Below are positions 1-44,316 of a stretch of DNA of 64,000 nt, one piece after another. This DNA comes from an uncultured virus (IMG/VR IMGVR_UViG_3300020578_000056). Its lineage: Duplodnaviria; Heunggongvirae; Uroviricota; Caudoviricetes. The notes beneath the pieces are model-generated. The model saw nothing but the letters and a program-made list of their open reading frames with translations. It did no database searches and was not told the origin of the DNA. A program made the position numbers and the translations under genes. Within the stretch, counting starts at the first letter, position 1; the number at the start of each line of letters is the position of its first letter. The DNA lies in the IMG/VR virus record IMGVR_UViG_3300020578_000056. One strand, written 5' to 3'.

Positions 1-1
1 A

Positions 2-4164: not shown

Positions 4165-4409
4165 AAAATGGGGATCTTAAGAATGAAACAGAAAGGCTCG
4201 CCTATTGGATGTGGGGGGCGGATGAACCAGCTATTTGCACCTGCAACCTTGGCCACAAGAATTGTGCAGTTGAGAAAGACGGAGTGTGTATGGACTGGCT
4301 TCAGATCCAGGTAGATCGGGAGTCTCCCATACGAGAAAAAACCGAAGCGATTCCTTTTGAGGATCTCTTCAAAGAAGGAGGTGATGGTTTATGCGAAGAC
4401 TTGTTTTGA
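4161..4409 (+). CDS. hypothetical Cys/His-containing protein
   Basis: GTGA overlap with upstream stop; CTCNLGHKNC. Confidence 0.55.
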   Translation: MKNGDLKNETERLAYWMWGADEPAICTCNLGHKNCAVEKDGVCMDWLQIQVDRESPIREKTEAIPFEDLFKEGGDGLCEDLF

Positions 4410-4714
4410 TGATAGCGTTGTTTGCCCAGCCTTTGGCAAAAGCTCAAGATGGAGTTTCCAACACCCTTAGGCTAGTGTCGATGGTTGGTGGACCCGCAGT
4501 AATATCAGCCAATCCAGTTTTGTTTAATTCAACAGGTAATCCTACTGGAATTTGGGGTAACCCAGATTTTGTCTTTTCCTTTACCAACCCAAGCGGTTTG
4601 TTTGGGAGCTTGGATTCTGTTTATAGCGTCAATAACGACTATGGTTTTGGCTTACGTGTCGATGCGTTCCAACCAGGCCTCGAACTTATCGAGGTGCCTT
4701 TCGAGGTCCCGTAA
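4391..4714 (+). CDS. secreted or periplasmic hypothetical protein
   Basis: GGAGG RBS; signal peptide MRRLVLMIALFAQPLAKA. Confidence 0.65.
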   Translation: MRRLVLMIALFAQPLAKAQDGVSNTLRLVSMVGGPAVISANPVLFNSTGNPTGIWGNPDFVFSFTNPSGLFGSLDSVYSVNNDYGFGLRVDAFQPGLELIEVPFEVP

Positions 4715-4833
4715 GCTAATTAAATCCATAGTTGCGGCTCTGGACATTAAAAGGATGTCGCAAATTTTGTCTGGAAGCATTCTCAACTCCGAGTCTTTGG
4801 GCAAACCATCCCAAAGCGGGCTATCGGGCGGAA

Positions 4834-5172
4834 TTAAGAATTCAGTTTCGCTCGCCTTTTTGCGCACGCTCCGCAACCTTGAAGTTTAGTTCCAAAGGTT
4901 TTATCTAAAGCTTTGGCAACAGGCTTGGCCAGCGTGTGGACAATGTCCCCCAACGAAGCGCCCCGACACTCTTCCTTGGGTAGCCTGTCGCAAATTTGAT
5001 CTTCAACCATTTGCCTAATAAAATTATCTATTGGCAACCCCCTGTTTATCCTAAGTTCCATAACATCTTGTATAAGCCCCTCAAATGAAGAACCTTGAAC
5101 CCAAGTTTTTAAATCGGGGTCTAAATACCGCCAGCCGCAAGCAGGTGTTTTTAGTTTGTCTTTAAGGGTCAT
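4834..5172 (-). CDS. hypothetical phage protein (C-terminal GCGACAKRR)
   Basis: 112-aa ORF with Cys cluster. Confidence 0.7.
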   Translation of the reverse strand: MTLKDKLKTPACGWRYLDPDLKTWVQGSSFEGLIQDVMELRINRGLPIDNFIRQMVEDQICDRLPKEECRGASLGDIVHTLAKPVAKALDKTFGTKLQGCGACAKRRAKLNS

Positions 5173-5184
5173 TACCCCCCTATC

Positions 5185-5212
5185 TTGACACGATTTCGTT
5201 CGGCATCAAGCT
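5185..5212 (+). promoter_or_regulatory. putative promoter TTGACA-N16-CAAGCT
   Basis: Perfect -35 box; -10 is weak and lies 6 nt before GTG 5219. Confidence 0.4.
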
Positions 5213-5218
5213 GAATAA

Positions 5219-5443
5219 GTGAAAGACGATGCTGGTTATAGTTTGCACGGAGAAAGCCCTGCAGCCGTAAAACTGCTTAAGATCTTTTTAGCGGCCAGCA
5301 TAATTGATAATGGTGGCCAGTTGGATATCTCAAAAAAGGCTTTGGCCGAACTCTCAGATAATGTCTCCAAGCACCGTGGTTTTCATTTGATGGCTTACCC
5401 TGGGGAAGACAATGGTATGGAGCTTACTCTCGAATGGTATTAA
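5219..5443 (+). CDS. hypothetical protein
   Basis: 74-aa ORF filling the gap between - strand genes. Confidence 0.6.
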   Translation: MKDDAGYSLHGESPAAVKLLKIFLAASIIDNGGQLDISKKALAELSDNVSKHRGFHLMAYPGEDNGMELTLEWY

Positions 5444-5580
5444 TGAAGCTTGTTTTTAAGCTTCTGATTCTAAGTCCCCTTTTGTTGTACCGTTTTGTTA
5501 TCTTACTAGTTGCGTATTTTCTGATGAGAAGTTTTCCAAAGGTATTTCTGTGGCTCCAAGCGAATTGTAAATTTTGCTGA
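5443..5580 (+). CDS. possible small membrane peptide (45 aa, not in ORF track)
   Basis: TAATG coupling; MKLVFKLLILSPLLLYRFVILLVAYFLMRSFPKVFLWLQANCKFC*; overlaps the 3' end of the antisense gene. Confidence 0.35.
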   Translation: MKLVFKLLILSPLLLYRFVILLVAYFLMRSFPKVFLWLQANCKFC

Positions 5581-5977
5581 CCCCAGAACTCCAATTTGCG
5601 TTTAAGTTTGTCGGATCATTCTCAGCCCCAAGAGGTGCGTAAACACGACCAAGTTTTTCAAAATCTCCTCCGACTTGGTCAATTCTTCTCCTTAAGTTTT
5701 TTGCAGAATACTCCAAACCGCTCTCTAAAGAATCAAATTTCTTAAGTTTAGTCCATTTCGTTTTGGGATCCATAATTCCAGCTGGGTTGTTGTAGTTTTG
5801 GATGGCATTGGATGTGCCATATCCAGTTTCGTGGGCAATGATGGCCGCAAATAAAGTGGGGTCGACCCCAGCATCCTCGGCAATTTGGGTGACTAACTGA
5901 GACTTTCCAGCCAAAACACCTTTCCCAAAGAGGGTGTCAAACTTGTTGGAAGCCCTAGATTTTTCTCCTAAGCCCAT
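5498..5977 (-). CDS. glucosaminidase / lysozyme-like peptidoglycan hydrolase
   Basis: AAIIAHETGYGTS (catalytic Glu), NNPAGI, YAP...W motifs. Confidence 0.8.
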   Translation of the reverse strand: MGLGEKSRASNKFDTLFGKGVLAGKSQLVTQIAEDAGVDPTLFAAIIAHETGYGTSNAIQNYNNPAGIMDPKTKWTKLKKFDSLESGLEYSAKNLRRRIDQVGGDFEKLGRVYAPLGAENDPTNLNANWSSGVSKIYNSLGATEIPLENFSSENTQLVR

Positions 5978-5980
5978 ATA

Positions 5981-6247
5981 TTAACAACTCCACAAAACCT
6001 TTCGTGACCAATAGTTTGCAGAAAGTTTCCCATCGCCACCCTTAATTCCTCCGCTTCTGGCGCAATAGCTTTTGCGTCTGGCTCGGCTTTTGTGCTGGCG
6101 GTAATCTTGCATAGAGCTATCCCCAAAATGAACTATTCTCTCTTTCCCATTGGCACAGGCCTTTACCATCTTCTTTTTGCCAGGGCGGGTGCTCTTGCGA
6201 GGTTGGTTGCAAGGCATCGAATCTTTGTTTACTCTTCCAAGTGGCAT
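5981..6247 (-). CDS. small basic viral protein (HFGD...RRKSYCAR...SANYWS type)
   Basis: Motif pattern recognised from small conserved dsDNA-virus proteins; function unknown. Confidence 0.7.
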   Translation of the reverse strand: MPLGRVNKDSMPCNQPRKSTRPGKKKMVKACANGKERIVHFGDSSMQDYRQHKSRARRKSYCARSGGIKGGDGKLSANYWSRKVLWSC

Positions 6248-6267
6248 AACTAATAGGAGGTTAAAGT

Positions 6268-6480
6268 ATGAATAAAAAAGGTCAAGAAACCATAAAACAT
6301 TACACAGATATGAACGATTTTAGCTGGAAAAGCATTCTTGTTATTCTGGTAGTGCCCCCAATTTCTTTTGCTTTGTGTTGCAGTCTTTTTATGTTTGTTT
6401 TTTATGTGGTGCCGGTTTCAATTTTGTGGGTGATCAAATATTTATTTTTGTTTCTCAAGCCAATTTCCAAAGTTTTGTAG
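6268..6480 (+). CDS. small membrane protein
   Basis: AGGAGG RBS; long hydrophobic segment; opposite strand to its neighbours. Confidence 0.6.
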   Translation: MNKKGQETIKHYTDMNDFSWKSILVILVVPPISFALCCSLFMFVFYVVPVSILWVIKYLFLFLKPISKVL

Positions 6481-9400
6481 TTTTTCAATTCTCGGGTCTT
6501 TGTTTTCCACCATTTTTTGAATCAGTTGTCCTTTTGCGTATTCTGTGGCCGCTGAAGTTGCCTTCTTAACAATTTCTTGAGCCACATAGGATTTTGAATT
6601 TCTAAGTTGCTCAATCATTTCGGGTTTGTTGAGGATTTCGTTAAGTTTGTTTCCCCTAGCAATTCTAAAATCGTAAAATTCTTGCTCTTCCATTGGAATC
6701 ATTCCAAGCAAGCGCTCCTTTCTTGCGGGAGAAGGAAACGCATTTTTAACCGCCAATACCTCAATCAAAGGATCTGCTTTAGAAAAGCTAAAAGTACGGC
6801 CAGTTGTTTTGATTGGGTTGCCAAGAAGGTCTTGATCTGGTTGCCCCAGAAATTGTCTTAGTGCTGGCGTATTTGCTATGAAGGCTCCGTCTGTAAGGGT
6901 TACCCTAGCTTTTTTCTCATCCAACTTTGTGTCCGCTCCCAAAACCTCCAAAATCCAAGGAATTCCTTTTTGATCAATATCTTTAAGGAAGTTTGGGATC
7001 GTCAAAGCGGAACCCATTCTTGCAAAAAAGGCTTTGGCTCGGCTTTCCGCTTGTTCTGGTTGGGAGCTATCCAGCATCCTAAAGAAATCTGAGAGACCCG
7101 CCAAAAAAACCATGTCAAAAGGGACGAGTAAAGCTTTGGTCAATGACGCATGGCCTGTCTCAAACAAAGCTCTTGAGCCGCTTTTTTTGTACTGCTGGTT
7201 GTCAAGAGTTTCACCAAGAATGGCAAGCGGAATCGCCATAGGGGTGGCTAAATAGCTAATATACGTATTTCCAACCTTAAAACTCCAAGGCTTCCAACCA
7301 ATTTTCATTAAGGCCTGTTTTTGCTGGGGTTCGCTTGGCCCGCCGCCATTAATTCTAAACCAAGACTTTTCGTAATCCCCATCCTCGTCAGTTCCAAGAG
7401 CCGAAAGCAAACCCGCCACACTTATAAACCCAAGCCCGACCAGTGCCCTAAATCGGATCATATCTTTTTCCACTTGGTCTACATCGGACCATTCTAGAGG
7501 ATCTTTTTTGAATGTGTTGGTAAGAGCTCGTTTTACGCTTAGTTTGGTTCCCTCAAGTCTCAATACTTTATCAAGGGCTCCCCCAAACCCATAATACCTT
7601 GCTAACCCATACCCAGTCATATCAATGGACATATTCCAGATATTCCCGACGATTCTTGTGAAAGGTATCACAAACCGAGTTTGGGGTGCCTTAGAGGCAA
7701 GAATGTTTAGGGCATTTACTACTGCCCCTAGAAACCCCTTTGGTTCTTGTTGGTACACATTGATCAAGGCTTTTGCAGAGGCTTGAGCAAGCACAGAGTT
7801 CATATCCGTTTCTCTAGGTAAACCCGATTCGGTTTTTCCTTGCCCAATAATTTGATCTAAAATTTCGTATGTTCTGAGACGATATTCTTTGGATCCTGGT
7901 TTGAAACCTTCCAAAGATGCTTGGCTTTCCGCACTCTTAAAGGAGTTTGTATCCCTTGCCACTGAGGCAAGAGCTCTGGCACTTAGCTCGGCCTCCCCAA
8001 GATTTGGGTTTTCTTCCTTTGCTTTTTTGTAGGCTCCAGAATAAAGATAAAATTCTTTGCTAACATTGTAAAACATACTATCCACAGCTGACATCAACCT
8101 TGTGACGGCAGTGCTCGGCATTCCTATCACATATTTAGCGGCTTTTTCCTTTCGGGTTTTGGCGTCTTTTTCCCACATAATTCTTGCCGAATTGGGGGTA
8201 CCCATTGATTCGGAAAGGGTAAGGTTCTCTGGTTTTGTCCAGGAATCCCCAGTGTAAGCAATGTTCATTGCGTCATCCCAACCTCTTGCAAGTCCGTTTA
8301 ATACGCCCTTAAGATATACTTTTGAATTTTTGTTTTTAATTGTCCCGATAGCGTATTCTGGAGCAATAATGAAAAAGAATTGAGATAAGTTTCCAAACAA
8401 ATTAGTAAGCTGAGTGTCTAGACCAGATAGAATTGACATATACCACCAAGACAAAGTGTAATCCCACAGATTCATTTGAAGCTTGTCGTACATCACTCGA
8501 ATCGCTTTTTGGTACCCCACATTTTTTTGGTAACCTTCCGGTTTAGTGTCGGCTTCCTGTACCAACTTGTAAATCGTTTCAGCAGTGGCTGGGTCGGTTA
8601 GACCTTCTTGTCTAGCAAACTCGGACCAAATGGAAGCGTTGGTCGGATCCAAGAGGCCATATGAAGAAAGATTTACCAATCGGGTCATAAACCTTTTTAG
8701 ATTAGGTTCCAACCTTCGATCCGCTTTTTTAGTTACAAGGTTGTCCAGAACCCTAGCGGCTTCTGCCTGGATAGTTTGCTCAATTTTTTTGGCAATTGAT
8801 TCTTGAAGTTTTTCAGCAATTGAAGGTTCGACTTCGACAACCTCAGAAGATTCCGCATCTCGGCTTAACCCCAATTCCCCGACAACCTCGCTTTCCTTTT
8901 TAAGCCCAAGAGTTCCCAAATTGGCTCGGTTCACAAACAATCCAGCCAAATCCTTGATGCTTCGATCAGCGTTGTCGGATCGATAGTACTCTTGGATCAT
9001 CTCTTTAATGTTAATCTCGTCGGCTTGCATCAGCCGTTTGATTTGGGGCAAAGTGAAAGGTTGTTCCAAGGCGGTTTTTAAATACTCCTCAAAAATAGGA
9101 GCCAGTTTTGGGTTAGCTTTAATTTCTGAGCGGATCGAGTCCTTGATTTGCACCCAAGCTTGAAGGGCTTTCGGCCATAAGGACAGAAGGTCAGACATTT
9201 TTTGGACGGTATCTTGCTGGCTTCGGATTTTGTTGAGAGTTTGGATTTCCTCTTGTGTTTTTGCTTGTTCCTCTTCTTGAGAAACTGATTTTAAGGTTGT
9301 GCCTTGTTCCTTAGCGGCATTTTGAATCACATTTTGGATCTTCCTAAGGGCGGCGCGCATTTCTTGGTTAATGCTCTTACCTTTCTTCAAATCTTCTGGA

Positions 9401-12400
9401 ATGCCCTCCCCTTTCCCCTTACCCTCCCCTTCCGTCTCCTCGGTCTTTTCTTGAGCCTGTAATTCTGAAGTAACCTTGTCTGTTAGGCCTTTACCCAAAG
9501 AGTCCGCAAACTGTTGCCACAAAGTCATAGTCTGTTTCTTGGCAATTCGTTTGGTGTTCTTTTGGGACAATTCCGTGGCTTTTTGGATAACCGAATCCAT
9601 TTCTTTTAGAATTTTGTCCAAGGCCTCGTTGGAAAGCGGTTTAAGTTTTTCGGTTACCAAACGGATAAAGTCGTCAAATTTTTCCCGAACAGCTTCGTTT
9701 CTTTTCCGCTCTTTCTTTAAGTAAAGAGCTTCCATCCCCTCGGGCCCAAGAAGAGTGATGAACTGATACTGGCGCAAAGCCCTTCCCGTATCGGAACTTT
9801 TCTGTAGAAACTCATCGATGAAGGATGCGGCCTTTACCGCCGCTTCTTCGTCGGTCTTGGACAAAGCCCGATACTCCCTCAACACCAGCAAACCAAGGGC
9901 TTCCTGTACCCCTGGGCGAACCCTCTCATCCCCATTGAGCACGGCGGCGGCACTGGATTCCAAGCCATTTTCCTTGAGATATCTTTCAGCCAGTGACATC
10001 ACCAGCTTGTCGGGCATCGGTTTGTAGTTTCTTTGGGTGACCAGATCCATCACCGATTTGGGGATTACCTTGTCCAGTTTGACCCCAAACCTACGAGGCT
10101 TTACTTCCGAGGTTCCCAGAATGTCGTTGAATGGCTGTTTACCCGTAGCCAAAAGAGATGGGGCTGTTCTTTGTTGAAGGATGAAGGTGTTGGGTTGGTT
10201 GAACAACTTTACTTTTGCAATGTTGTACCGATTAAGGCTGGTCGGGGAAGCCACTGCGTAGCTGGCCAAAGCGGATGGAGATTCGTAAGAGTATAAAGTT
10301 TCTCCTTGGTAGTTAAGTTTGTTCCTTCCCGTTTCGGCTTCGTAAGTTACTTGCCGTTCCAACCTTTGTGCCTTAATGGACTTTCTAAGAATTCCTGGAT
10401 CTTGAATTGAAGAAAACAAACCGCTGTTCATTGCGCTCTTGGCGGCATCCCGGCGAAATGCTAGGAAAGTCCAATCAGAGTTATTGTTGTAGTCAGCCAA
10501 GGCTTGACGAAAATCCCTTAAATATCCTGAGTTTTCAGGTTCCTTGGTTAATCCCTCAGCATGACGGGTAATATCGTTGTATCTTTTATATGTCCCAGAA
10601 GTCCTAGCGTCGGAAGGAGCCTCTTCCTTAGCCCACAAACCATCAAACCCAAGATCCACCAAGGCTTTTAAGGTTGAATAATTGTAAGTGGCTCCGATTT
10701 TTCTTCGAATGGTTTCTTCCTCTACACCCTGCTTTCTAAGCTCTCTCGCATCTGGAACCGTGTATTCAGATCTGGTTGGGTCGAAAGCGCCTTCATATAA
10801 ACGCCAATCGTAAAATCCGTTTTTAAAAGCATAGACTTCTTCATTTTTGGAAAAGATGGGGTGGTTTCTTTCTTTGAGAAGATTCAAAAGTTTTTCGACA
10901 TGCCCCTTGTTTCTTGGGTCAAAAGGGTTCGTGGCTTTAATGTAAAGTGGATAAACGACCTGTTCGGAGTATTCGTTGTCTGGGTTGTTGGCCAATGACC
11001 AGCCTTCCGCCCAAGCCCGATTCGGGGTAGTCCATAAACCTTTAAATCGATTTAAGCCAAACCTTCGAATGTAAGATGATGGTTTTTTTGTTTTTGAAAG
11101 TTCGGTGGCTTCGTCTTGGTATAAGTCGCTGTATTTTTGAAGGTAAGACCCAGTTCCGTGATACATCAAAAGAGGCTCACCCGCGGCGTCCAGAATCTTA
11201 CTGGTAGCTTTCCCTTTTGGGTTATTTTCCCAATCCCCAAACCAGGCCTTGAATAAGGGGGTTCGTTCCAAGCGGTACCTAAACTCCGATTTGGGAATCG
11301 CTTGACCCCGAAGGCCATACATTACGCTCGGTTTACCAGTAGCGAGATTAATTAGCTGGCCTTCGTTGTTTCGGGATATTTTTACAGAATCCATTTCGCT
11401 TCGGATTTGCTCAAAAAACTTTGTTACTTCGCCTTCGTTTGCCCCAGTGACTGGAGCCATTGTGTCGAGAATAGAAAGCTGATCAGTCATATACTGGAGC
11501 CGATTGCCCATATAAGTTTCGAGCCTTTTGGGCACGGCATTTAAAACTGCGTCTGCGTTGAGAACTAAATCAGATAATTGAGCAAGCAGTGTTGAATCGT
11601 CTAGATTTAAATATGGGTAATTTTTCTTTAAAACTGGCAAAGAATCGTAATAGAAAGGCTCGTTTCTCGGGGCTTCTTCAAATCCCTTGGTGTCAAATGT
11701 TCCACCGCTGTCCACACGATACACCGTATGGACGGTCTCCAAACCCTCCCCATCAGCGGTGGGAACTTCAGTGGTTCGGACAAGAACATTATCCCGATAA
11801 TTGACCCCGATAGAATCGTAGTTGAAGAGAAAGGCGTCGATTAGCAGTCCGTCGGCAAGTTGTTCGTAAACCTTTTGGATGTCGCTAGGCCTATCCTTGT
11901 ATTGCTGCTCAAACTCTTTGAGCGTAAGTCCGTCCTCAATAAACTCGGCAATCTTTGCCGGCTTTCCGTCTACCTCGATTAGTTTGGAATCCGCAACTGG
12001 GTAGCCAAGAACCCGATAAACATTTTCGGCGGCAACCTCGTTTTCAAACTGCTCCCTCGACTGGTCAGTCTTGACGATGTAGCGGTTTCCGTCGGCGTCC
12101 TCGTAAAGTCCCACGGGATGAGAGCCACCCTCCATATCCTTAACAAAAGCAAGATCTTCGATTCCGTCGGGAAGACGATAGGACTTGCCTAAGTCTTGCT
12201 TGGGCGTGGTGATAAACCCCCTTCTTGGCATTGCTGCGACTCCAATAAGTCCGCTTCCTTTCGGCTCGTAAAGAACCCTGCTTTTTGGCCTTCCCGCAAT
12301 TCCGGTTAGGTCGTGAATAAGTTTGACTCCATCCTCAATGGCTGTTTCAAATAAAGCATCCAATTGTTCTTTGTTTGGCTTTCCTTCAAAGTAAATGTTA

Positions 12401-15400
12401 AACCCATCTCCGATAACTCTCACCCAACCACGAGAAAGCATTTCCTCAACCAAGCCTTCTTGCCTCTCGTTTTTCTGAAACGGATCCAAAAGACCCCATT
12501 CTTGAAGAAATTTGTCTTTGGGTTCGTTTTCTTTTAGGTATTCCAAAACGGCTTCGGCGTGGTTGCCCATTCTTAATCCTTCAATCATTACATCTTCGTC
12601 GACATCAAGGGTAGTTGCATCTGGTTTTAACCAGGACGACCTGTCCGAGGGAACTGGCGCGGCTCCGAGGATATCACTTTGGCTCTCTTTCTTAAAAATA
12701 GTTTGTACAGACGAGGTGCTGTAAACTTGATCTTTTAGCTTTTGGTTTTTGTCGATATAGGACAAAGACCACCCCTCTAAGTTTTCCCAATCTTTTCGCC
12801 CAGATTCTGTTTTTAAATTCGGGCTTTTAATTTCCGTCACTTCATATCTTTGGGGGTCGTTTTCAAAAGTAAGTATGTCCCCAACTTTGGCAAAAGGTCG
12901 TCTTGTTGTGGCGGTTCTGACTCCATCTTGAATCAGCTTTAAGGTAGTGGTGCCCTTTGGGTATCGGCTTTTTAGGTCTTCTCTAACCGCCTCTGAGGGC
13001 ATAGAGTACCTCATTGGGATTTGAGCAGAAGGTTTTTGAATTGGGGCGGTTTTCGGTTTTTGCCCAAGCTCTTTCAGCTTCTCCTTGATGGCGGAAACAT
13101 ATTCTGATTTTTTCCAGGAGGGTCTGTACGAATAGGCCTCTTTGTATTTCCTAGTTTTTTCGTCAAAAATAGTATATTTGTGTTTAAAGGTTGGGACTTT
13201 AATTTTTAATTCTTCAGCGTATTCCTCCAAAAACTTTTTAGATTGATTATCTAAACCCGAAAGTTGATCCTCTTTGGCGAGATCAGTTGCCTTCTCTTGC
13301 GCTGTTTTTTCTTTTGGCTTGAACTCTTCAGGCTCAAAATAATTTGAAAAAACTCTTTCTTTTTTAGGGGGGTTGATCAAATCTCGGTTAAGCGTCCGAA
13401 GAAGCTTGGTGGTGGTAATGAGGTAGTTGGAATCTTTTTGGCTAGTCCCCACCACTCGGGCGGCAAGATTGGTCAAGGCTGTGATGATGTCGTCTACAAG
13501 GCGGGTCAACCAACGTTTGTCGCTATCATCCATTGCTGCCGCCAAATCTCTGGCATTTAAAACCGCTGACTCGGTTACTTTTCCTGTGGTCTCCTGTTCC
13601 ACCAGCATTCGGACAAATTCAAAATATTGAGTTTCTGGATCCCTAAAAGTGTCGCTTTCGCCGTTGCTGTACAACCGAGCAATATACCTCTTCAACCTTC
13701 GGTTTCTGTTGAGGAAACGACCGACCCGACGAGCTTCGTTTTTAAGGTGCTTGTCGAAGGTCAGACCAAGTTGACCAGCTTCTTTTTCTAGTTGCTTGAG
13801 GTGAACATTGTGGACGGTTTCGTGAGTGGCCACCGCCATATACCGCCATTGTTGCCACCTTTTGGCTCCCTCGGGTTTTCCAAATTTTTTCTCCAACAAC
13901 CTCTTTTGGCGGCTCAAAGCTTCGGGGTTCACGTAAATGGTTAGCCCCTGTCGATCCCCCCTTCGGACAAAAATTGGATTGTCCCCGCCATCCCCAAGTT
14001 TGACCTCGGCGTTTAAGCCAAGATCCCGCATCACATCCGTCAACTCTTGGACGGATTGCCGAACCGGTTTTGAAAACTCGTTTTGAGAAGTTAACCTTGG
14101 GTCGACTTTGAGCGTGGGAACAGTTTCCGCAACCTTTCGCTGCTCTTCGCCCACTTTGGATCCTCTTCGGCTAGGTCGTGGACGGTCTGCCACAGGCGCT
14201 TCTGGCTGGCTTTGGCTCTGATCAGTTCCGACAGGAGCGGTTGCCCCTGGTGGCTGTGCAGGGCTTGGTCCAGGTGGCTGCTGAATGCTAGGTTGTTTGC
14301 GAAGTCTTGCGCTTCGGGATCGTCTGGGAACAGGTTGGCCAGTTCCGGGCTGCTCGGTGATGGGTTCATTGGGTTGTCCTTTCTCTATGTTGGCGATTCT
14401 TTCTTCGACCAAGCTGTCCTCCAGAAGCCCTCCTTCAAGGGGTTCAAAGACTTCGGTCGAAAGTCTCTGTCTGTTTTGCGGGGTGGAACGCATTCCCGCA
14501 TCTACCAGCTTCTCGGCTAGATACTGGTTTTGCGTGGCGTTCCTACCCCGATCAGCCAGCGTCTGTTTTTCCTGCCGCTCCAAAGCCTCGGCGGCAAGCT
14601 TATCCGATCTAGCTTTGGCTTTTGTTCTAGCTTGCTCCCCCTCTGGGGTAAGAGCTACAGAAATTTGATCAGCGGTCACGCCATAGCCAGCCTTTTGTAG
14701 CTGGTCGGAAAGAGCTTGTCTGGCCTCAGTGGCCATTTTTGAAACAGCTTTGGCGTTAACTTTCTTTTTGTTTAAGTCCGTGAAGAACTTGGCCAAATCT
14801 TCGTAAGACCCAAGATTTTTTGTTTCTACTCCCGAGGGCGTTGCTGAACCCGTCAATTTGTTAACCATCCAGTCTAAGACGATTTTCTGGTCTGGCCCAA
14901 GGGCTTCCCTGGCGGGAGTATAGCCGTTGTCCTTAAGAACCTTGGTGGCGGGTGCTTCAGTGGCGTTGGTTTGTGCCCTAAACTGGCGTGTTTCTCCGGC
15001 AATTTTCTCCTCTTCGTCTACCTCAATCTGGGTCTTTGCCGGCTGATCAGAGGTTTCCAGTTGCTCCAAGATTGGAGAGCTTTTTAGAAAACTCTTTATT
15101 TCAGAGTTGTCTTTTGCGTCCATAGCGGCCTGTCTTGCCCAAGCCGCCAACTGAGGTCGAATAGTCTTTGATTCTAGTTCTTTGTCCCCGATCACTTTGT
15201 TTTTGTTTAAAAAGTTGGCAGAGCGGCGAAGCAAATCGTCAAAAATGTAATCTTCCACATTGGGGATATTCTTGAAGTTTTGAGCCACTTCTTCCGATAT
15301 TTTTCGGATTTCCCCAAAAGCGTTTTCTTTCCAGATTTGCTGTTCTTCGGTCAGTTGGCTGTCACGAATCGAATAAAGTTTTTTTCTTAGGTTGGCTTTC

Positions 15401-17541
15401 CGAATGGAGTCTCTGCGGGCATCGATATCTGGTGCGGGTGGTTCGCTGGGTTTTGCTGGGACTTGGCTAATATCTTTTTCCAGACCAGTCATTTTTCCAT
15501 ACTGCTCTTCAAGGGTCTTAAAATAGTCGTTCCTTTTCCACCCAGCTTTAGGCTCCACTCGTATTTCCTGCGGAACAACCTCGTTGACCTTCTTCAAAGC
15601 CGACTTTAGATATTTAATCTGATCTTTGTTCTTTTGAACTTCCTCCCATTTGGGCAGTTCTATCTTTTGCGAAACCTTTGTTTCTGGAATCTTGGTTTCT
15701 GCAACTTTGACTGTTTTCGCTGGCGAAACCTTGGCTGTCGGAACTTTAGGTGTTTCTGTCCTTAATGCAGGAGCGACTGCCTCTTGACCTTGTTGAGCAG
15801 TTTCGGGCTGCACGGGTGTTGCGGGTGCAACTGAAGGGACGGCTTGTGTTGCGGCGTTAACGACTTCTTGGACTTGGACTGGTTCAATTGCTGTTTGGAC
15901 TGGGCTTTCAACATTCGTCTCTCCTTCTTGTGTTTCAACTTGTGGCACTCCTTGAAATTCGAAGGCTTGGGTCTCCTCGTTCAGTTTCCAGGTGGACGGA
16001 AGGCTGAACCCAAACCTTTCGAGGTCGTCAGCCAGCACGGGCTTTCTTGCCCGAATATCTCCGTAAACCTTGGCGGCATCCAAAGTGTTCTGTCGATCCA
16101 TCACGGTTTCCGTAGAAATCGGTTCTGGAGCCGTTTCTTGTGACAAAATATCGTTTGCCTGTTGCGGGGTAAGTTTGTTGATTTGACTTTGGTCGTAGCC
16201 AAGATCCTTCAATTTTTGTTCCATTGCCCGAGTTATCATCAAGGGGATACTCACCCCTTGCCCAGTTCCTTCGGCTGTTTCGGTCTTTACTTCAACCTCT
16301 GGAATAATTTTCTCCGAAACTTCGTCCGCCATTTGTAAATCGTTTTCCAACTGTTCGTTTGCCGCGGCTTGCATAACGGCTTTGGCGGTTTCGGGCGCTC
16401 CCGCTTGGGACAATTCTGTAGCTCTGGCCAAAGTCCCATCTTTCTGGACTTTTTCGGCAAGATCCCTTGCCCTCATTTCGGTTACTGGATCGAGTTGTCG
16501 GTATTCGCCAAGGGCTTTGAGACCCTTGTTGTACATTTCGGAAGCCGTCCCAATCGCGGCTGCTCCAACCGCCGTAGGAGCTTCGATCACGCCTTCCAAC
16601 AACACCTCGTTGGGGTTCACCATCTTCCCTTCCGACCAAACCTGGCTTAAATATTCACCCCCCATTCCGCCACTGACTTCCAAGGGAAGGGATGTGGTAA
16701 GACTTTTTAGTCCGAACTTTGAGGAAATCCCCGCCGTAGCCGCGTCAATAACCGCCGGAGGAACACCTTTCTTTACCGCTTTGTCTTTGATTTCCCCCAT
16801 CATTTTCTCATCGGAAAATGCTTCCCCAACCGCACGAGGGTCTTGTAGATCAACACCTTTCTCGGAAAGGCTCTCTAAGATTGATCCAGAGTACTCCAAA
16901 AGACCGGAGTTAAGACCCGCAGAAGATGCCACGGCGGCGGTTGTTCCAGCAGGACCGGCCAATAGTCCACCCGCCACACCCGCACCTATAGTTGTTAGCA
17001 TCGAAGCTGGGATATTCTCCAAAATAAACTCGGCGATAGCCACGGAACCTTCCTCTTTGTCCTCCATAAATGTGTCGCCCATTTGTTTGGCGGCATTCCA
17101 AAGAGACCCAAAAACGCCAAGGTCTTTCCCTTCGTCGATGTAAGTCCCAAGTTTCCTTGCTGTGCTCGAACCTGGGCGGTTGGCTATCTCCTGATTAATC
17201 TCGGCAAGCTGGATTTTGGCCTCATTGTTTGGATCCAAGGCTCCCGAGGACATTCCCGCAACTAGGGCGGCTTGTTTGGTTCGAAGAAAGGATCTTTCAA
17301 AAGCATTTTGAAGCCGCTCTTCCTTCGTCTGGGAATCCAAAACGCTATCATAAATCTGATTCATATAGTCGTTTACATATTTGACATCCTCCTCAGATTT
17401 AACGGTTGGGCGGACACGCTCGATGGTTGCGTTGGACCAGTCTTTAAAAAGGTTTAACCTTTCCCCAATCGGAAGATTTAGAAACTCTGGATCTTCCGCA
17501 TACTCATTCCACGGAATGATCGGATCCTCTTGTGAGGTCAT
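6442..17541 (-). CDS. giant internal virion / ejection polyvalent protein (3699 aa)
   Basis: Last of three ejection-type genes; Gly/Ala hydrophobic N-region; sigma-like, HExxH, ASCH-like, kinase-like and ART-like modules; helical C-terminal region. Confidence 0.85.
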   Translation of the reverse strand: MTSQEDPIIPWNEYAEDPEFLNLPIGERLNLFKDWSNATIERVRPTVKSEEDVKYVNDYMNQIYDSVLDSQTKEERLQNAFERSFLRTKQAALVAGMSSGALDPNNEAKIQLAEINQEIANRPGSSTARKLGTYIDEGKDLGVFGSLWNAAKQMGDTFMEDKEEGSVAIAEFILENIPASMLTTIGAGVAGGLLAGPAGTTAAVASSAGLNSGLLEYSGSILESLSEKGVDLQDPRAVGEAFSDEKMMGEIKDKAVKKGVPPAVIDAATAGISSKFGLKSLTTSLPLEVSGGMGGEYLSQVWSEGKMVNPNEVLLEGVIEAPTAVGAAAIGTASEMYNKGLKALGEYRQLDPVTEMRARDLAEKVQKDGTLARATELSQAGAPETAKAVMQAAANEQLENDLQMADEVSEKIIPEVEVKTETAEGTGQGVSIPLMITRAMEQKLKDLGYDQSQINKLTPQQANDILSQETAPEPISTETVMDRQNTLDAAKVYGDIRARKPVLADDLERFGFSLPSTWKLNEETQAFEFQGVPQVETQEGETNVESPVQTAIEPVQVQEVVNAATQAVPSVAPATPVQPETAQQGQEAVAPALRTETPKVPTAKVSPAKTVKVAETKIPETKVSQKIELPKWEEVQKNKDQIKYLKSALKKVNEVVPQEIRVEPKAGWKRNDYFKTLEEQYGKMTGLEKDISQVPAKPSEPPAPDIDARRDSIRKANLRKKLYSIRDSQLTEEQQIWKENAFGEIRKISEEVAQNFKNIPNVEDYIFDDLLRRSANFLNKNKVIGDKELESKTIRPQLAAWARQAAMDAKDNSEIKSFLKSSPILEQLETSDQPAKTQIEVDEEEKIAGETRQFRAQTNATEAPATKVLKDNGYTPAREALGPDQKIVLDWMVNKLTGSATPSGVETKNLGSYEDLAKFFTDLNKKKVNAKAVSKMATEARQALSDQLQKAGYGVTADQISVALTPEGEQARTKAKARSDKLAAEALERQEKQTLADRGRNATQNQYLAEKLVDAGMRSTPQNRQRLSTEVFEPLEGGLLEDSLVEERIANIEKGQPNEPITEQPGTGQPVPRRSRSARLRKQPSIQQPPGPSPAQPPGATAPVGTDQSQSQPEAPVADRPRPSRRGSKVGEEQRKVAETVPTLKVDPRLTSQNEFSKPVRQSVQELTDVMRDLGLNAEVKLGDGGDNPIFVRRGDRQGLTIYVNPEALSRQKRLLEKKFGKPEGAKRWQQWRYMAVATHETVHNVHLKQLEKEAGQLGLTFDKHLKNEARRVGRFLNRNRRLKRYIARLYSNGESDTFRDPETQYFEFVRMLVEQETTGKVTESAVLNARDLAAAMDDSDKRWLTRLVDDIITALTNLAARVVGTSQKDSNYLITTTKLLRTLNRDLINPPKKERVFSNYFEPEEFKPKEKTAQEKATDLAKEDQLSGLDNQSKKFLEEYAEELKIKVPTFKHKYTIFDEKTRKYKEAYSYRPSWKKSEYVSAIKEKLKELGQKPKTAPIQKPSAQIPMRYSMPSEAVREDLKSRYPKGTTTLKLIQDGVRTATTRRPFAKVGDILTFENDPQRYEVTEIKSPNLKTESGRKDWENLEGWSLSYIDKNQKLKDQVYSTSSVQTIFKKESQSDILGAAPVPSDRSSWLKPDATTLDVDEDVMIEGLRMGNHAEAVLEYLKENEPKDKFLQEWGLLDPFQKNERQEGLVEEMLSRGWVRVIGDGFNIYFEGKPNKEQLDALFETAIEDGVKLIHDLTGIAGRPKSRVLYEPKGSGLIGVAAMPRRGFITTPKQDLGKSYRLPDGIEDLAFVKDMEGGSHPVGLYEDADGNRYIVKTDQSREQFENEVAAENVYRVLGYPVADSKLIEVDGKPAKIAEFIEDGLTLKEFEQQYKDRPSDIQKVYEQLADGLLIDAFLFNYDSIGVNYRDNVLVRTTEVPTADGEGLETVHTVYRVDSGGTFDTKGFEEAPRNEPFYYDSLPVLKKNYPYLNLDDSTLLAQLSDLVLNADAVLNAVPKRLETYMGNRLQYMTDQLSILDTMAPVTGANEGEVTKFFEQIRSEMDSVKISRNNEGQLINLATGKPSVMYGLRGQAIPKSEFRYRLERTPLFKAWFGDWENNPKGKATSKILDAAGEPLLMYHGTGSYLQKYSDLYQDEATELSKTKKPSSYIRRFGLNRFKGLWTTPNRAWAEGWSLANNPDNEYSEQVVYPLYIKATNPFDPRNKGHVEKLLNLLKERNHPIFSKNEEVYAFKNGFYDWRLYEGAFDPTRSEYTVPDARELRKQGVEEETIRRKIGATYNYSTLKALVDLGFDGLWAKEEAPSDARTSGTYKRYNDITRHAEGLTKEPENSGYLRDFRQALADYNNNSDWTFLAFRRDAAKSAMNSGLFSSIQDPGILRKSIKAQRLERQVTYEAETGRNKLNYQGETLYSYESPSALASYAVASPTSLNRYNIAKVKLFNQPNTFILQQRTAPSLLATGKQPFNDILGTSEVKPRRFGVKLDKVIPKSVMDLVTQRNYKPMPDKLVMSLAERYLKENGLESSAAAVLNGDERVRPGVQEALGLLVLREYRALSKTDEEAAVKAASFIDEFLQKSSDTGRALRQYQFITLLGPEGMEALYLKKERKRNEAVREKFDDFIRLVTEKLKPLSNEALDKILKEMDSVIQKATELSQKNTKRIAKKQTMTLWQQFADSLGKGLTDKVTSELQAQEKTEETEGEGKGKGEGIPEDLKKGKSINQEMRAALRKIQNVIQNAAKEQGTTLKSVSQEEEQAKTQEEIQTLNKIRSQQDTVQKMSDLLSLWPKALQAWVQIKDSIRSEIKANPKLAPIFEEYLKTALEQPFTLPQIKRLMQADEINIKEMIQEYYRSDNADRSIKDLAGLFVNRANLGTLGLKKESEVVGELGLSRDAESSEVVEVEPSIAEKLQESIAKKIEQTIQAEAARVLDNLVTKKADRRLEPNLKRFMTRLVNLSSYGLLDPTNASIWSEFARQEGLTDPATAETIYKLVQEADTKPEGYQKNVGYQKAIRVMYDKLQMNLWDYTLSWWYMSILSGLDTQLTNLFGNLSQFFFIIAPEYAIGTIKNKNSKVYLKGVLNGLARGWDDAMNIAYTGDSWTKPENLTLSESMGTPNSARIMWEKDAKTRKEKAAKYVIGMPSTAVTRLMSAVDSMFYNVSKEFYLYSGAYKKAKEENPNLGEAELSARALASVARDTNSFKSAESQASLEGFKPGSKEYRLRTYEILDQIIGQGKTESGLPRETDMNSVLAQASAKALINVYQQEPKGFLGAVVNALNILASKAPQTRFVIPFTRIVGNIWNMSIDMTGYGLARYYGFGGALDKVLRLEGTKLSVKRALTNTFKKDPLEWSDVDQVEKDMIRFRALVGLGFISVAGLLSALGTDEDGDYEKSWFRINGGGPSEPQQKQALMKIGWKPWSFKVGNTYISYLATPMAIPLAILGETLDNQQYKKSGSRALFETGHASLTKALLVPFDMVFLAGLSDFFRMLDSSQPEQAESRAKAFFARMGSALTIPNFLKDIDQKGIPWILEVLGADTKLDEKKARVTLTDGAFIANTPALRQFLGQPDQDLLGNPIKTTGRTFSFSKADPLIEVLAVKNAFPSPARKERLLGMIPMEEQEFYDFRIARGNKLNEILNKPEMIEQLRNSKSYVAQEIVKKATSAATEYAKGQLIQKMVENKDPRIEKLQNFGNWLEKQK

Positions 17542-21057: not shown

Positions 21058-22950
21058 TTAGTAGGGCGTGTTAAGGATTTTGTATAAGTCGATGGGGTAC
21101 GAAAAAAGAACAATACCGTTAAATCGAACGGTGAGTACCCCAGAATCGATCTCGGCTTCTAGATTCCCCCCAGGCCGAATCGGTACAGTTGCTAATGCAA
21201 GATGAGCCCTAACCTGTCCCCTCCAGATTAAGGCAACATGCGAATTGTTTGGGTCAAATTCATTGTGGTAACTATCAATTTCTACGGCAAAGCTATTTGG
21301 GTTGCCATCTTGGTAACCGAGCCCACCGCCAAAACCAGCTAAAAATGGGGCCGATGAGAAAATAAGTGCAAACCCATCGGCCTCTGAATCTCCCCCTATT
21401 GTGTACGAAAAAGATACTTTAATCTTTCCGGTCAATGTTGGGGCAATAGCCCAAATTCCCCCACCGGAATCATATTTGTTTGAGGTAAGCCTCCAAACAT
21501 CAGGGCTCACCAAAGTCGCCTCACCTGAACGAAACCTTGGATCTAGCGGTACAGGCTTGCCATTTATCTTGAAATCATAGATTGTTTGAATCGATCTCAG
21601 GGAACCAGTGCTCGCAGTAACGCCAACATAAAAAAGATTGATCTCTTCTGGCTTTTCAAATTGCCGAGAGTCTCTCGCTGGCTGCCCGCCCGCACAAAAG
21701 CTTGAAGAGGCTGCCTGTACTTCAAGAGTACCATACGGGAATTGCAACACTTCCGCACGGCTAAAAATGGCCACCCAATTTCCAGTCGAACTAACCAACA
21801 CGGTTTTTGTGATTCCATTTATTGTCACAAGAACTTGAGTTGTGTTCCTAGCCAAACCTGAGATAACTAAGTCCCCCCTTCCGACCCAGTCACTCGGTCC
21901 TGGGCATGGCGTCAGCGACCCGCCGCAATGACCCTGCTCAGAGGAAGGTTTGTAACATTGGTAGCAACGCTCATCCAGATCGGGGTCTGGGGTAAACCAA
22001 GGCGGAAGCCCGCTGGAATAATAGGGTTCAACCCATTCGATAGAAATAATCTGCACGTACGGGTCTTGGCAAAAAACGCAAGAGCCATCATCCGTGTTTG
22101 CCAGAGGGTTATAATTTAAAGCTCCCGGTGTTGTGCAACCAAGTTTTACGCAAAACCCGTCAATGTTGGCCTCCGGATCGAAATTGGGAGCTTGGGGATC
22201 CCGACAACCCACAATCTGGCAAGAGCCATTGTTCTGGTTTGCGTTCGGATTAAAATTCACAGCTTTTGGGTTGGTGCAACCCGGGACAACCACCGGGCAG
22301 AATGGGTCTATTGTAATGGTGACTGAGCCGACTCCCGCATTGTTGATGGCGCACACTCGAATTTGAAACGGCTCAAAATCACAATCTAACCCCTGACCGC
22401 AGGGCGAAACCCCAAATAGTTGTCCTGTTTTTGGATCGAGGTTTATCCAGCTTGGCGGTGGAGGTAGCGGAGGGTTAGCTGTTGAGTTGCAAATTTCGTA
22501 CCTTACGACAGGACCTCCAGTTAAGATTGGGCTAAACCGAAAGATGCTTCCGCACTGCGGCAAAAGTAAGGAGGTTCCGCCATAGCCAAATGCGGGGGGT
22601 TGTAAAAATACGCACGAACCGTCGTCGTGCGTAGCCCGAATATTGTAGTTGAGAGCGGCACGGTTGGTGCATCCGTAAATCCTAGACCCGCAGGGAATGC
22701 AAACCGTTTCAAGAGGGTTGCCTCCAGGTTCGGCTGGGCAATTTAAAACGGTGGGGGCGGTAGCGTCTTGAGTGCATGCTGTGATAGCGTCTGGTTGCTC
22801 GACTCCGCAAGAGCTTGTCGAATCGACAGGATCTGACGCCAAAGACGAAACTGTGACAGTCCGAACAACGCTTGAGGAATTCCCGGACTCGTCGGTTGCC
22901 GTATAGGTAACCTCGTAAAGGCCATTTTCCAAAATCGTCACGTTGCTCAT
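21058..22950 (-). CDS. Cys-rich adhesin with GC-x-(D/N)...DDGSC repeats, Ig-like domain and C-terminal L-type lectin
   Basis: GCTNRAALNYNIRATHDDGSC-type repeats; WINLDPKTGQLFG; ADGFALIF, GGGLGY, SFAVEIDSYHNEFDP. Confidence 0.8.
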   Translation of the reverse strand: MSNVTILENGLYEVTYTATDESGNSSSVVRTVTVSSLASDPVDSTSSCGVEQPDAITACTQDATAPTVLNCPAEPGGNPLETVCIPCGSRIYGCTNRAALNYNIRATHDDGSCVFLQPPAFGYGGTSLLLPQCGSIFRFSPILTGGPVVRYEICNSTANPPLPPPPSWINLDPKTGQLFGVSPCGQGLDCDFEPFQIRVCAINNAGVGSVTITIDPFCPVVVPGCTNPKAVNFNPNANQNNGSCQIVGCRDPQAPNFDPEANIDGFCVKLGCTTPGALNYNPLANTDDGSCVFCQDPYVQIISIEWVEPYYSSGLPPWFTPDPDLDERCYQCYKPSSEQGHCGGSLTPCPGPSDWVGRGDLVISGLARNTTQVLVTINGITKTVLVSSTGNWVAIFSRAEVLQFPYGTLEVQAASSSFCAGGQPARDSRQFEKPEEINLFYVGVTASTGSLRSIQTIYDFKINGKPVPLDPRFRSGEATLVSPDVWRLTSNKYDSGGGIWAIAPTLTGKIKVSFSYTIGGDSEADGFALIFSSAPFLAGFGGGLGYQDGNPNSFAVEIDSYHNEFDPNNSHVALIWRGQVRAHLALATVPIRPGGNLEAEIDSGVLTVRFNGIVLFSYPIDLYKILNTPY

Positions 22951-25900
22951 TGGATTTTCTGGATTGTGACAGATACGGTTCTTGGCCCATCGATCAGGTC
23001 CACTGCTGTAGCTCCCTGTTCAATGTAAGGCTCCCCGGAAACCAGGGAAATAAGCGACGGCCCATTGAGGGTTAGCACGGGTGGTGTTGTGTCAGGCTGC
23101 ACCACAACAGTCCTTTGAATCTGGTTAGAGGGGTTACCAGAGGAATCCGTTGTCGAGTAAGTCAGCAAGTAGGAGCCAGCAACCAAATTGTTGACAACCC
23201 CAACACCAAGAACCGTCCTTGGTTCATCGTAATCGTCTTCGAAGCTGGCCCCCTGATCCGGGTAATTCCCTTTTCTTGGTATGGAAACAGAATCCTCCCC
23301 ATTTAAAGTAAGAACGGGTGGGGTAATGTCTACGACATTGACAACCCTCGTAACTGTTGATTTGTTGTTAGCATCGTCTTTTGCTTCGTATTCTAAAGAA
23401 TAAGAACCTTTTAAAGAAGTGTTTACCGAGCCTGTGATTGTCACCTCAACCTGGGTATCCTTGTTGTCGCTAACCAGATACCCAGGGTCTACCTCAGACC
23501 AATCCGAAAATACCGGAACTGCAAGAGGGTTGTCCCCCAAAAGAATAATAGTCGGGGGGATGGTATCCGGTGGCTCTACCACGATAACTTGACGGCTTAC
23601 CGGGTTTGCCGGATTCCCCGCTAAATCAGAAGTTGAATAGGCTCTTTGGTACGAACCTGGCGTGGCCATATCCACGACACCCGTTCCTTGAATTATCCTA
23701 GAGGCGTCGATATTGTCGGACACCAAAGCGCCTGGATCTGGATAGTTTGAACCTGGAGATGCAAACAGAACATGGGGGCTAGGCCCCAGCAGCGTAATCT
23801 CTGGCGCAATTCCATCCCTTACCGTGACCACCAAGGTTTTTGAAGTTGTGTAATTTAAAGGGTCTTTAGCGGTATAGATTACTTGGTATGTCCCGATTAC
23901 CGCAGAGTTAACCGACCCCTGCGTGGTTACCGTAATCTGCCAATTACTGAAAATCCCGTCCGGATCAGAAGTTGCGTATCCTGGGTTATACCACGAAGAA
24001 TTCTGCACAATACTTTGGGCTAAACCTCCGTTTATGCTTAAAGCGGGATTAGCTTTTGGAACGACATTAACGGTCCTTAAAGCAGTCCCGACATTTCCAC
24101 GCGGATCCTCTGATCGGTACGTAAGAAAATAGGTTCCCAGCACGTTTTTGTTGACTGACCCAATTGTCGTATTTATCAGCTCCCACTCATAGTGTTGAGA
24201 ATCTGTTGCGGAAAATCCAGGATCGTTCCAGGTTTGCCCGTGCTTTAGGTTAACAATTGCCTCGCCATTTCTTGTGACTACGGGTGGGGTGGTATCGTCT
24301 TGAACAATAACCGTTCTTACGGCTTGCCCGGTATTCCCGGAAAAGTCGGTTGCTGAATATGTAATTAAGTATATTCCAGGTGAGCTTTGGCCGAAAGGAT
24401 TGAAACCCGACGAATATTGTCGGTTTACTTGCCATTGGTCAAAAGTCTGGCAGTTATTGTCCAAAGCGGTTGCGTATTGCTCGCTGTAGTTCCCACGATA
24501 TGGAACATAAACCGTTGAGGGTCCGTTTAGAGTAACTACGGGAGGGGTTGTATCGGCGACTACTTGGATTGCTCTAGCAACCCTAGTGGTTAGGCCTCTC
24601 GAGTTTCTGGCTCCGTAGGTGATGTAATACGTGCCAATAGAAGACCCTATAAAATACGAGCAAAGATTTGAACAGGGAGCTTGATTGGGCGGGTTAAACC
24701 AGACTCCGCATGAGCCGTCTACACTTGAGTTAAAGCTTTGGCCGGGAGTGTAAGAAAAGGTATCGAGTAAGTCGGAAAACTGAACGCCAGGATTTAGGCA
24801 AGAAGCGTCAAACGAAAAGGTGTTTAGTTGCGAGACTGGAACTTGCAGAGGATTGGCTCCGAGTAAAGTGATGGTTGGGGGGACATTTGAGTCAGCTACG
24901 ACATTTACAGTTCTTGTCTTTTGAGTTGCCTGGTTTCCAGAGCTGTCCGTGTGCGAATAAGTTCTCGTGTAAGAACCAGCAACAGATGTGTTTACTGTTC
25001 CGGATCCTGTTATCGACTGCGTGGGGTCGCAGTTGTCTGTGACTATGGCTCCCGGGTCTGAATAGGTTGAGTTAAGAGCCACATTCTGGGGATTATTCCC
25101 GTTTAGGGTGATTACGGGGGGCGTGGTATCGGCAATCACATTGACGGTTCTGGTAATGGTTGCCGTGTTTTCTGAAAAATCTTCCGATGTGTACGTTATT
25201 GTGTAAGCCCCAGGTACACCTGAGTTCACTGACCCGGTTATGTCTAAGCTCGGGCTTGGGTCGACGTTGTCCGTGCTTGTGGCCCCCGGCTCAGAATAAC
25301 TTTCGCCACAAGTAAGATCTAACGGGTTATCCCCGTTTAGGGTAATTACGGGGGGCGTTTCGTCCTCAACCACATTGACGGTTCTTGTGGCGGTAGACTG
25401 ATTTGAGGACGCATCGGTGGCCGTATAAGTAATCGTGTATTCCCCAACAATATTCCCATCTACTTCCCCAGAAGTCGTCAAAGAAGGGTTTAAGTCTTGG
25501 TCGTCGGTTACGGTTGCTCCGGGGTCAACAAACGGAAGCGGATTTCCTTTGTAATATGTGAACGGGTTAGCGCCGAGCACGGTTATTACCGGAGGCGTTG
25601 TATCCGGCCCCGGGGCGGGGTTGTTTACGCTAAACCCTGGCGAAGTATAGGTGTCAAAACCTTCAGCAGAAATTGAGAAGGTTATTCCAGTTGCAACCCC
25701 ATAGACATACCCAGAAGTATTTGCGGCTGGTTTTAGACGAATTTCGAAATCAGCATAGTCATTGTTTGGAGAAGCAAGCGTAGCCGGAAAGTTAGACCAC
25801 TCACTTTGATTCCAAAATTTTACTTGAAGGCGCTGATTTTCTGTCGAAGAAAAAGATACCTGAATCGATGGATATATGGTGCAATTAGGGTCACAAATGT

Positions 25901-44215: not shown

Positions 44216-44218
44216 CTT

Positions 44219-44245: not shown

Positions 44246-44316
44246 TACACTTAGGGAAGTCCGATTGCATCACCTGAATACAGCGGTCTTCGCGGCTCAC
44301 GGCTTGCTCGGCGGAT

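Follow-up and report, generated by a model that had tools for sequence, protein, structure and literature searches.

A predicted sigma-like module of the ECF type within a giant polyvalent protein of an uncultured phage

We describe a module that resembles sigma factors of the extracytoplasmic function (ECF) type in its predicted fold and lies inside a giant protein of an uncultured virus of the Caudoviricetes (IMG/VR record IMGVR_UViG_3300020578_000056). The DNA that was analyzed, hereafter the window, is 64,000 nucleotides long and encodes this 3,699-residue protein on its minus strand. Residues ~727 to 954 may constitute a strongly diverged ECF-type sigma-like module that would dock on the host RNA polymerase (RNAP) at entry, a reading to which we give a probability of about 0.45. 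The argument for a sigma-like fold is drawn from domain matches to the cognate sigma domains nearly end to end, from the order of these domains and from the enrichment of sigma factors in fold searches, and not from any single score. The module and its parts, including the confidence of the linker in the predicted local distance difference test (pLDDT), are located as follows.

6442..17541, minus strand: giant open reading frame (ORF) P0001, 3,699 residues (ORF list and translation)
14461..15831, minus strand: conserved block holding the module, residues 571-1027 (composition scan; invariant columns in 11 full-length homologues)
15079..15363, minus strand: domain 1, predicted sigma-2-like helical bundle, residues ~727-821, model residues 16-110 (AlphaFold2, VIA-align, hhalign)
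14959..15078, minus strand: disordered acidic linker, residues ~822-861, model residues 111-150 (pLDDT 34-43)
14680..14958, minus strand: domain 2, predicted sigma-4-like helix-turn-helix (HTH), residues ~862-954, model residues 151-243 (VIA-align, hhalign)

The original prediction had recognized an ECF sigma-like module here from five motifs. All five were found in the order that it gave, on the minus strand at 14698-15309, which corresponds to residues 745-948 of the giant protein.

15280-15309, minus strand: IRKISEEVAQ, residues 745-754
15112-15150, minus strand: LAAWARQAAMDAK, residues 798-810
14884-14913, minus strand: AREALGPDQK, residues 877-886
14782-14811, minus strand: GSYEDLAKFF, residues 911-920
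14698-14748, minus strand: AVSKMATEARQALSDQL, residues 932-948

The motifs belong to a single minus-strand frame, and the plus-strand frame of 14690-15330 contains many stops. The conserved block is flanked by linkers rich in P, Q, S, T, E and G at residues 507-570 and 1028-1136, and domain 2 carries a loop of ~15 residues inserted ahead of the HTH. As a reference we used an alignment of 14 ECF sigmas comprising Escherichia coli RpoE, three RpoE orthologues and ten plasmid-borne ECF sigmas (24-31% identity) that were picked across a spread of 901 records. All 12 family members have a module linker with a net charge between -3 and -7, and the linkers of these 14 sigmas carry -1 to -7; domain 2 is mildly basic, so that its charge pattern together with the acidic linker is like that of the reference sigmas.

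Two AlphaFold2 models of the module, built from 9- and 12-sequence alignments, agree with each other (mean pLDDT 70.9 and 71.1) and contain helical domains at model residues 1-110 and 151-257 (block pLDDT ~77-90), with an intervening segment (102/111-150) of pLDDT below 50. The five motifs sit on helices 21-42, 51-69 and 80-100 of domain 1 and on helices 172-186, 202-213 and 219-239 of domain 2. The models were compared with three libraries using two aligners (Foldseek against the PDB, Foldseek against viral models, and VIA-align against 48,161 chains), and sigma factors top the searches in all three, with a signal that is clear by rank and modest by score. Judged by title, sigma chains or chains of sigma holoenzymes and initiation complexes account for 39 of the 48 and 45 of the 49 PDB matches listed by Foldseek for the two models; the remainder are one ambiguous entry per list (9a7s) and eight and three unrelated ones. 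Since the PDB alignments span 204-279 columns, they cover both domains in order. Among the viral models, the best two matches are phage sigma factors (E 0.041, probability 0.98; E 0.043, probability 0.84), and 11 of the 50 matches listed are named sigma.

VIA-align, which does not depend on Foldseek, gave a similar picture, with sigma factors making up 26 of the best 50 matches for each model. The top match of both models is the sigma-2 fragment of SigR (Z 7.0, root-mean-square deviation (rmsd) 2.9, 76/78 residues; Z 7.8, rmsd 3.4, 77/78 residues), and domain 1 also matches the SigE N-terminal domain, SigC, RpoS and region 2 of sigma-70. Domain 2 matches region 4 of SigR (Z 6.5, rmsd 2.3, 64/65; Z 6.2, rmsd 2.0, 63/65) and region 4 of SigE bound to -35 DNA (Z 6.4-6.6, 69/69). 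Furthermore, whole SigL (6dv9_F), SigH (5zx2_F) and AlgU (8z6g_B) align from model residues 11-18 to 238-244, and the module thereby has the order sigma-2, linker, sigma-4 in one chain. The architectural reading as sigma-2, linker and sigma-4 therefore stands at the level of the predicted fold.

The module is conserved among giant proteins. Residues 700-980 have 16 giant homologues of 2,718-4,279 residues at 58-100% identity (among 2,614 candidates), and a second clade is ~25-27% identical to the module, two of its members (P0020 and P0021) being 25-26% identical by BLASTP. A phmmer search with the module over 1.84 billion representatives matched five proteins: three long ones (1,891-3,583 residues) aligned along the module, P0020 and P0021 being second-clade members matched in this way, a 4,059-residue protein with 14 short matching stretches (the best at query 107-166), and a 225-residue fragment. 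The module is also present at eight viral-contig loci, which were obtained from 224 pattern matches. In the second clade it is kept whole in P0020, P0021 and loci L004-L007, and from the middle of domain 1 onward in L008. Twenty columns of the 12-sequence alignment (A2) are invariant; within domain 2 these include D-W, on the first helix, and Y, L-A, K and V, which belong to the HTH. No free-standing relatives of 100-455 residues were found at E ≤ 10 among 8,000 scored candidates, and neither the module nor the terminase nor 5.5 kb of the DNA has a DNA or protein match among 50,697 GenBank phage records. The L008 locus lies at bases 1-9680 of a viral record (G004) with a completeness rating of 100%. 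Its giant gene extends beyond the contig start, where of the module just the last part of domain 1, the linker and the sigma-4-like half remain; circular permutation of the record, or a cut within the gene, is the probable cause.

At the sequence level, the module and the 14 ECF sigmas were compared by hhalign. The whole module aligned with P 0.031 (probability 1.6%), domain 1 aligned with ECF sigma-2 over 75 columns (P 0.0046, probability 7.5%), and domain 2 aligned with ECF sigma-4 over the 33 columns of the SYxELA...V...L HTH (P 0.017, probability 2.7%); the crossed domain pairs gave P 0.57 and 0.41. The register pairs GDQxxF of the module with GDxxAF, (E/D)D-YIFDDLL with (A)EDVVQEAFI, and the W/A/D helix with WLxxIAxNxxxD, and it places the five motifs as expected for an ECF sigma. 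Reversed profiles score 9-11, compared with the observed 20.7 for domain 1 and 16.7 for domain 2. As an internal control, the giant protein was scanned in 66 windows, each 110 residues long, against the sigma-2 and sigma-4 profiles. The module windows rank first and second against sigma-2 (18.0 and 17.4; mean 11.6, standard deviation 2.6) and third and fourth against sigma-4 (16.3 and 16.1; mean 11.0, standard deviation 2.4). Judged from sequence, the similarity of the module to ECF sigmas at the motif level thus appears weakly above chance.

A number of results weigh against a sigma-like module that docks on RNAP, as follows: First, sequence profiles are silent. Searched at E ≤ 10 with the module and with each half of it, neither Pfam nor NCBIfam gave a sigma or HTH match; the 12 family members together match 26 Pfam families at this threshold, and none of the 25 listed is a sigma or HTH family; and the module has no match to Sigma70_r2 (PF04542) or Sigma70_r4/r4_2 (PF04545, PF08281) at the curated cut-off. 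PF08281 matched 0 of 5 related phage records versus 14 of 14 control genomes, and a module profile (A1) against PDB sequences retrieved no sigma factor, only chance-level matches of which the best was thioredoxin reductase (E 0.024). Second, the hhalign probabilities are just 1.6-7.5%, of 60 seven-column block shuffles per domain, 2 score as high as the real domain 1 and 10 as high as the real domain 2, and residues 1376-1540 of the same protein outscore domain 2 against sigma-4 in the internal scan. Third, residues for core contact are partly lost. The D..Q E motif of region 2.2 and the tryptophan of region 2.3 have a core-binding role in sigma factors. In the hhalign register, D48 of region 2.2 is retained, and the glutamine that is invariant in the 14 ECF sigmas (Q51 in RpoE) is F in the window sequence. 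The position of the invariant W73 is aromatic in the second clade only (W in three, F in three and Y in one of seven sequences) and is Q, I or P in the first clade. Fourth, the structural scores are modest: the best Foldseek E values against the PDB are 0.16 and 0.13 for the two models, with none at E ≤ 0.001, and all VIA-align Z values are below 8, a range that is common for helical proteins according to the tool. For domain 1, DUF1048 (Z 6.6-7.1) and cytomegalovirus IE1 (Z 6.1-6.9) come within 1 Z unit of the sigma-2 match and so tie with it, and the alignments are shallow (effective number of sequences 2.6), so that the models could lean on learned sigma-like patterns. At last, several sigma-70-type promoter candidates of the form TTGACA-N16/17-TAxAAT occur, including some inside the structural gene block, for example at 21048 and 32560 (minus strand), so that a phage-encoded sigma may not be needed.

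The original prediction was to be abandoned if a sigma or HTH profile match and a sigma-2/sigma-4-like fold were both absent. The profile match is absent in Pfam and NCBIfam, and the fold is predicted by both models and recovered from all three structure libraries. Because the curated Pfam profiles and the region-2.2 motif both fail, we do not file the module as a member of the sigma-70 family, and its membership of that family is not established.

The modest scores also bear on an alternative in which the module consists of two generic helical bundles, unrelated to sigma, that serve as spacers or packing elements in a giant structural or ejection protein. Scores within a grey zone throughout (Z < 8, Foldseek E ≥ 0.04, hhalign probability ≤ 7.5%), the tie of unrelated helical proteins for domain 1, the frequency with which shuffles attain the domain-2 score, and protein-atlas look-ups that returned no usable match for the whole module or for domain 2 alone would all suit such bundles. 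We nevertheless consider this alternative improbable. Sigma factors occupy more than half of the best 50 matches from 48,161 chains for both models, and most of the Foldseek PDB matches listed; two different domains each match the cognate sigma domain nearly end to end and in the correct order; the cognate hhalign pairs outdo the crossed pairs; and the module windows stand near the top of the internal control.

A different alternative accepts the sigma-like fold and dispenses with RNAP contact: the module would be a mimic or an HTH adaptor, either for phage DNA (as a pilot or end-binding element) or for a sigma-binding host protein. In PhyR, a sigma-like domain within a larger protein binds the anti-sigma NepR. 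The same predicted-fold evidence serves this alternative, to which the loss of the region-2.2 glutamine lends weight, as do the HTHs of sigma-4 type that match domain 2 and have no polymerase role (UPF0122, Z 5.3-5.5; VpsT and EsrB, of the LuxR type, Z 5.1-5.2) and the position of the module inside a 3,699-residue chain, which sets it apart from free sigma factors. Moreover, polyvalent proteins carry assorted DNA-binding domains of the HTH, helix-extension-helix and histone-fold kinds, according to the main text of a survey of these proteins (Iyer et al. 2017, PMC5512222). Both domains, their order and the acidic linker are, however, kept over two clades at 25% identity, which would be more than a lone HTH needs, and no anti-sigma-like partner was seen, although none was looked for. 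We regard this alternative as somewhat unlikely, but as a stronger competitor than unrelated helical bundles.

Besides the module, three regions of the giant protein could be assigned.

10888..11190, minus strand: match to ART-PolyVal, the ADP-ribosyltransferase of polyvalent proteins (PF18760), residues 2118-2218
13810..13824, minus strand: HExxH motif HETVH in a conserved segment, residues 1240-1244 (regular-expression scan)
6532..8481, minus strand: C-terminal anchor region, residues 3021-3670; segments 3361-3384 and 3465-3483 are hydrophobic (hydropathy scan)

The ART-PolyVal match is the sole family match of the giant protein. It is below the cut-off in this protein (E 1.1e-5, 26.6 bits, cut-off 31.2), and the family was found in 10 of 11 aligned homologues (best E 1.2e-7) and in precomputed matches on 14 of 16 homologues. 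In the HETVH motif, E1241, V1243 and H1244 are invariant across 11 homologues; the segment has no Pfam match, and its sequence makes it a possible metalloprotease bead, for which the giant protein itself could be a substrate. The podovirus MW202801 encodes, directly ahead of its endolysin gene, a 1,121-residue protein that lacks the module (A2 profile score -1.0); residues 589-1113 of that protein align with the C-terminal 650 residues (3021-3670) of the giant protein at 23% identity (E 1e-22). The giant protein is thus a polyvalent protein, with a conserved C-terminal anchor and a string of cargo domains separated by low-complexity linkers. Because its gene ends a co-directional structural block and its C-terminus matches a podovirus protein encoded before the endolysin, it probably travels in the virion and enters the host together with the DNA. 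A search of PHROGs with the giant protein returned 0 families, and a profile of the whole protein against PDB sequences returned one match (E 0.52). An N4-like virion RNAP was considered as an identity for the giant protein and rejected, as PHROGs, Pfam and motif scans gave no signs of it. Separately, a short motif in the LEEYAEELKIKVP region, at residues ~1376-1540 (window ~12922-13416, minus strand), scores 18.4-18.9 over 20 columns against the sigma-4 HTH, and may be a separate helix-hairpin or HTH DNA-binding bead.

Under the docking reading, the module would be one bead between the low-complexity linkers of a polyvalent protein that is ejected with the phage DNA. Once in the cytoplasm, the module, either within the whole protein or cleaved from it, would dock on the host core RNAP in the manner of a sigma factor, with domain 1 on the β' clamp helices, domain 2 on the β flap and the acidic linker in the cleft. 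In this way, the phage could control host transcription before any phage gene is expressed, and the outcome would be either recruitment of RNAP to the entering genome or competition with the host sigma. An ADP-ribosyltransferase resembling Alt lies in the same chain and fits a cargo directed at RNAP. A complex prediction of domain 1 with residues 230-340 of E. coli β', in which E. coli is a stand-in host, scored 0.01-0.02 and gives no verdict either way. A bolder version, in which a working sigma factor is packaged in the particle, binds the host core RNAP (still within the giant protein or cut from it) and steers it to phage early promoters at the entering DNA end, seems to us unlikely; it would amount to a third way of taking over transcription from the virion, alongside packaged polymerases and packaged polymerase-modifying enzymes such as T4 Alt.

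The intergenic DNA was searched for phage-specific promoter motifs, and the results neither support nor exclude a dedicated sigma. TCTTGAC is the sole enriched intergenic word (21 copies versus 8.4 ± 3.0 expected; 0 of 100 shuffles reach 21), with sites at 52568-52585 and 52775-52803 (minus strand) and also at 151, 5183, 21042, 32554 and 42159. Copies stand in tandem between the terminase and integrase genes, several make TTGAC-N8/9-GTCAA palindromes, and two related phage records show an excess of the word as well. It resembles a sigma-70 -35 element or an operator (half-)site from the regulatory region of a temperate phage, and not an ECF-type promoter. No phage-specific bipartite promoter motif was found in the window, and footprinting against two relatives gave no common promoter-like block upstream of plus-strand genes.

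Compared with known ECF (group 4) sigmas, such as E. coli RpoE, Streptomyces coelicolor SigR and Mycobacterium tuberculosis SigH and SigL, the module has in common the predicted two-domain sigma-2/sigma-4 architecture, the absence of sigma-3 and the acidic linker, as well as motifs of the kind GDxxAF, (E/D)D..., SYxE(I/L)A and a V-containing recognition helix in the same order. It differs from them in several ways. ECF sigmas are free proteins of ~190 residues, whereas the module is embedded at residues 727-954 of 3,699; its linker has ~40-50 residues, versus 22-34 in the 14 ECF sigmas; and it has the extra loop before the HTH, no Pfam Sigma70_r2 or Sigma70_r4 match and a replaced region-2.2 glutamine. 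Phage sigma factors are its nearest viral structural neighbours, and they are encoded by separate genes and expressed in the cell, whereas the module is part of a probable virion protein. In phage T4, gp55 and gp33 form a split sigma that is made after infection. Phage sigma-type proteins recruit the host catalytic core, an example being the group 2 sigmas of jumbo phages as described in PMC7824862.

With the polyvalent proteins described by Iyer et al. (2017; PMC5512222), the giant protein has in common the giant beads-on-a-string architecture, the ART-PolyVal domain and a gene in the structural block. The main text of that survey proposes that such proteins enter the cell together with the DNA and target host systems, among them RNAP through ART and GNAT domains; the word 'sigma' has 0 occurrences in it, and a sigma-like bead appears not to be among the polyvalent domains that this main text describes. 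The same text gives the virion RNAP of phage N4 and T4 Alt as cases of virion-delivered action on transcription, and T4 Alt is described there and in PMC7824862 as an ADP-ribosyltransferase with a role on the host polymerase. The giant protein would resemble these in being a large packaged protein that hits transcription at DNA entry, as do crAss-like phages. These last phages carry a virion RNAP, a large packaged protein that acts on transcription as the DNA enters, and phiKZ-like phages have packaged polymerases. Whereas N4, crAss-like phages and T4 Alt deliver a polymerase or a modifying enzyme, the giant protein would deliver a specificity or docking subunit, and no polymerase catalytic motif was found in it.

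Phages are known to reach host transcription through sigma factors made after entry, or through an injected polymerase or polymerase-modifying enzyme. If the docking reading is true, the joining of a sigma-type module to a giant protein that is ejected would be new, and the specificity or docking subunit would be on hand from the very start of infection. The domains catalogued for polyvalent proteins would then gain a transcription bead. No report of a virion-packaged sigma factor turned up in literature searches on polyvalent, ejection and virion-packaged phage proteins. The module also offers a way into an uncultured phage lineage that is without a match in the GenBank phage records searched.

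The DNA of the window is that of a phage. On the minus strand, a co-directional block runs from the terminase-like gene through genes for tail-fibre-like, Ig-repeat and lysozyme/CHAP-type proteins to the giant gene, which is its last big gene, and a glucosaminidase gene. The plus strand encodes a C5 DNA methylase, a helicase, an exonuclease, a family A DNA polymerase and a 2-oxoglutarate oxygenase. The original prediction also noted no separate sigma or RNAP gene in the window, and our scans agree: Pfam over 48 window ORFs gave no RNAP or sigma gene, and ORFs longer than 300 residues contain no DxDGD in a polymerase context and no motif of the DFDxD type save one unlikely DVDED. Other features are as follows.

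50820-52541, minus strand: terminase-like gene, start of the structural block
52727-54037, plus strand: tyrosine integrase (Phage_integrase, E 5e-9), overlapping an alternative minus-strand ORF at 52691-53140
22947-25979, minus strand: 1,010-residue protein with nine Bact_surface_Ig-like repeats (E 3e-129)
33010-37818, minus strand: 1,602-residue protein with two YDG-domain matches (E 3e-33) and no other family
44035-44316: non-coding stretch upstream of a gene for 417 residues (42781-44034, minus strand)

Although the phage lineage may be temperate, a search of 185,579 species genomes revealed no prophage copy. Two DNA repeat families (D1 and D2) at 23057-25362 are the coding repeats of the 1,010-residue Ig-like protein, which is adjoined by a 630-residue protein with a lectin-like domain; both proteins are probably host-binding appendages. 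Rfam and tRNA scans of the window found nothing, and the stretch at 44035-44316 has no Rfam match at the gathering score. This stretch is 84-89% identical to that of a related phage record (G005), compared with ~68% for the neighbouring coding DNA, and may be a structured leader or a small RNA.

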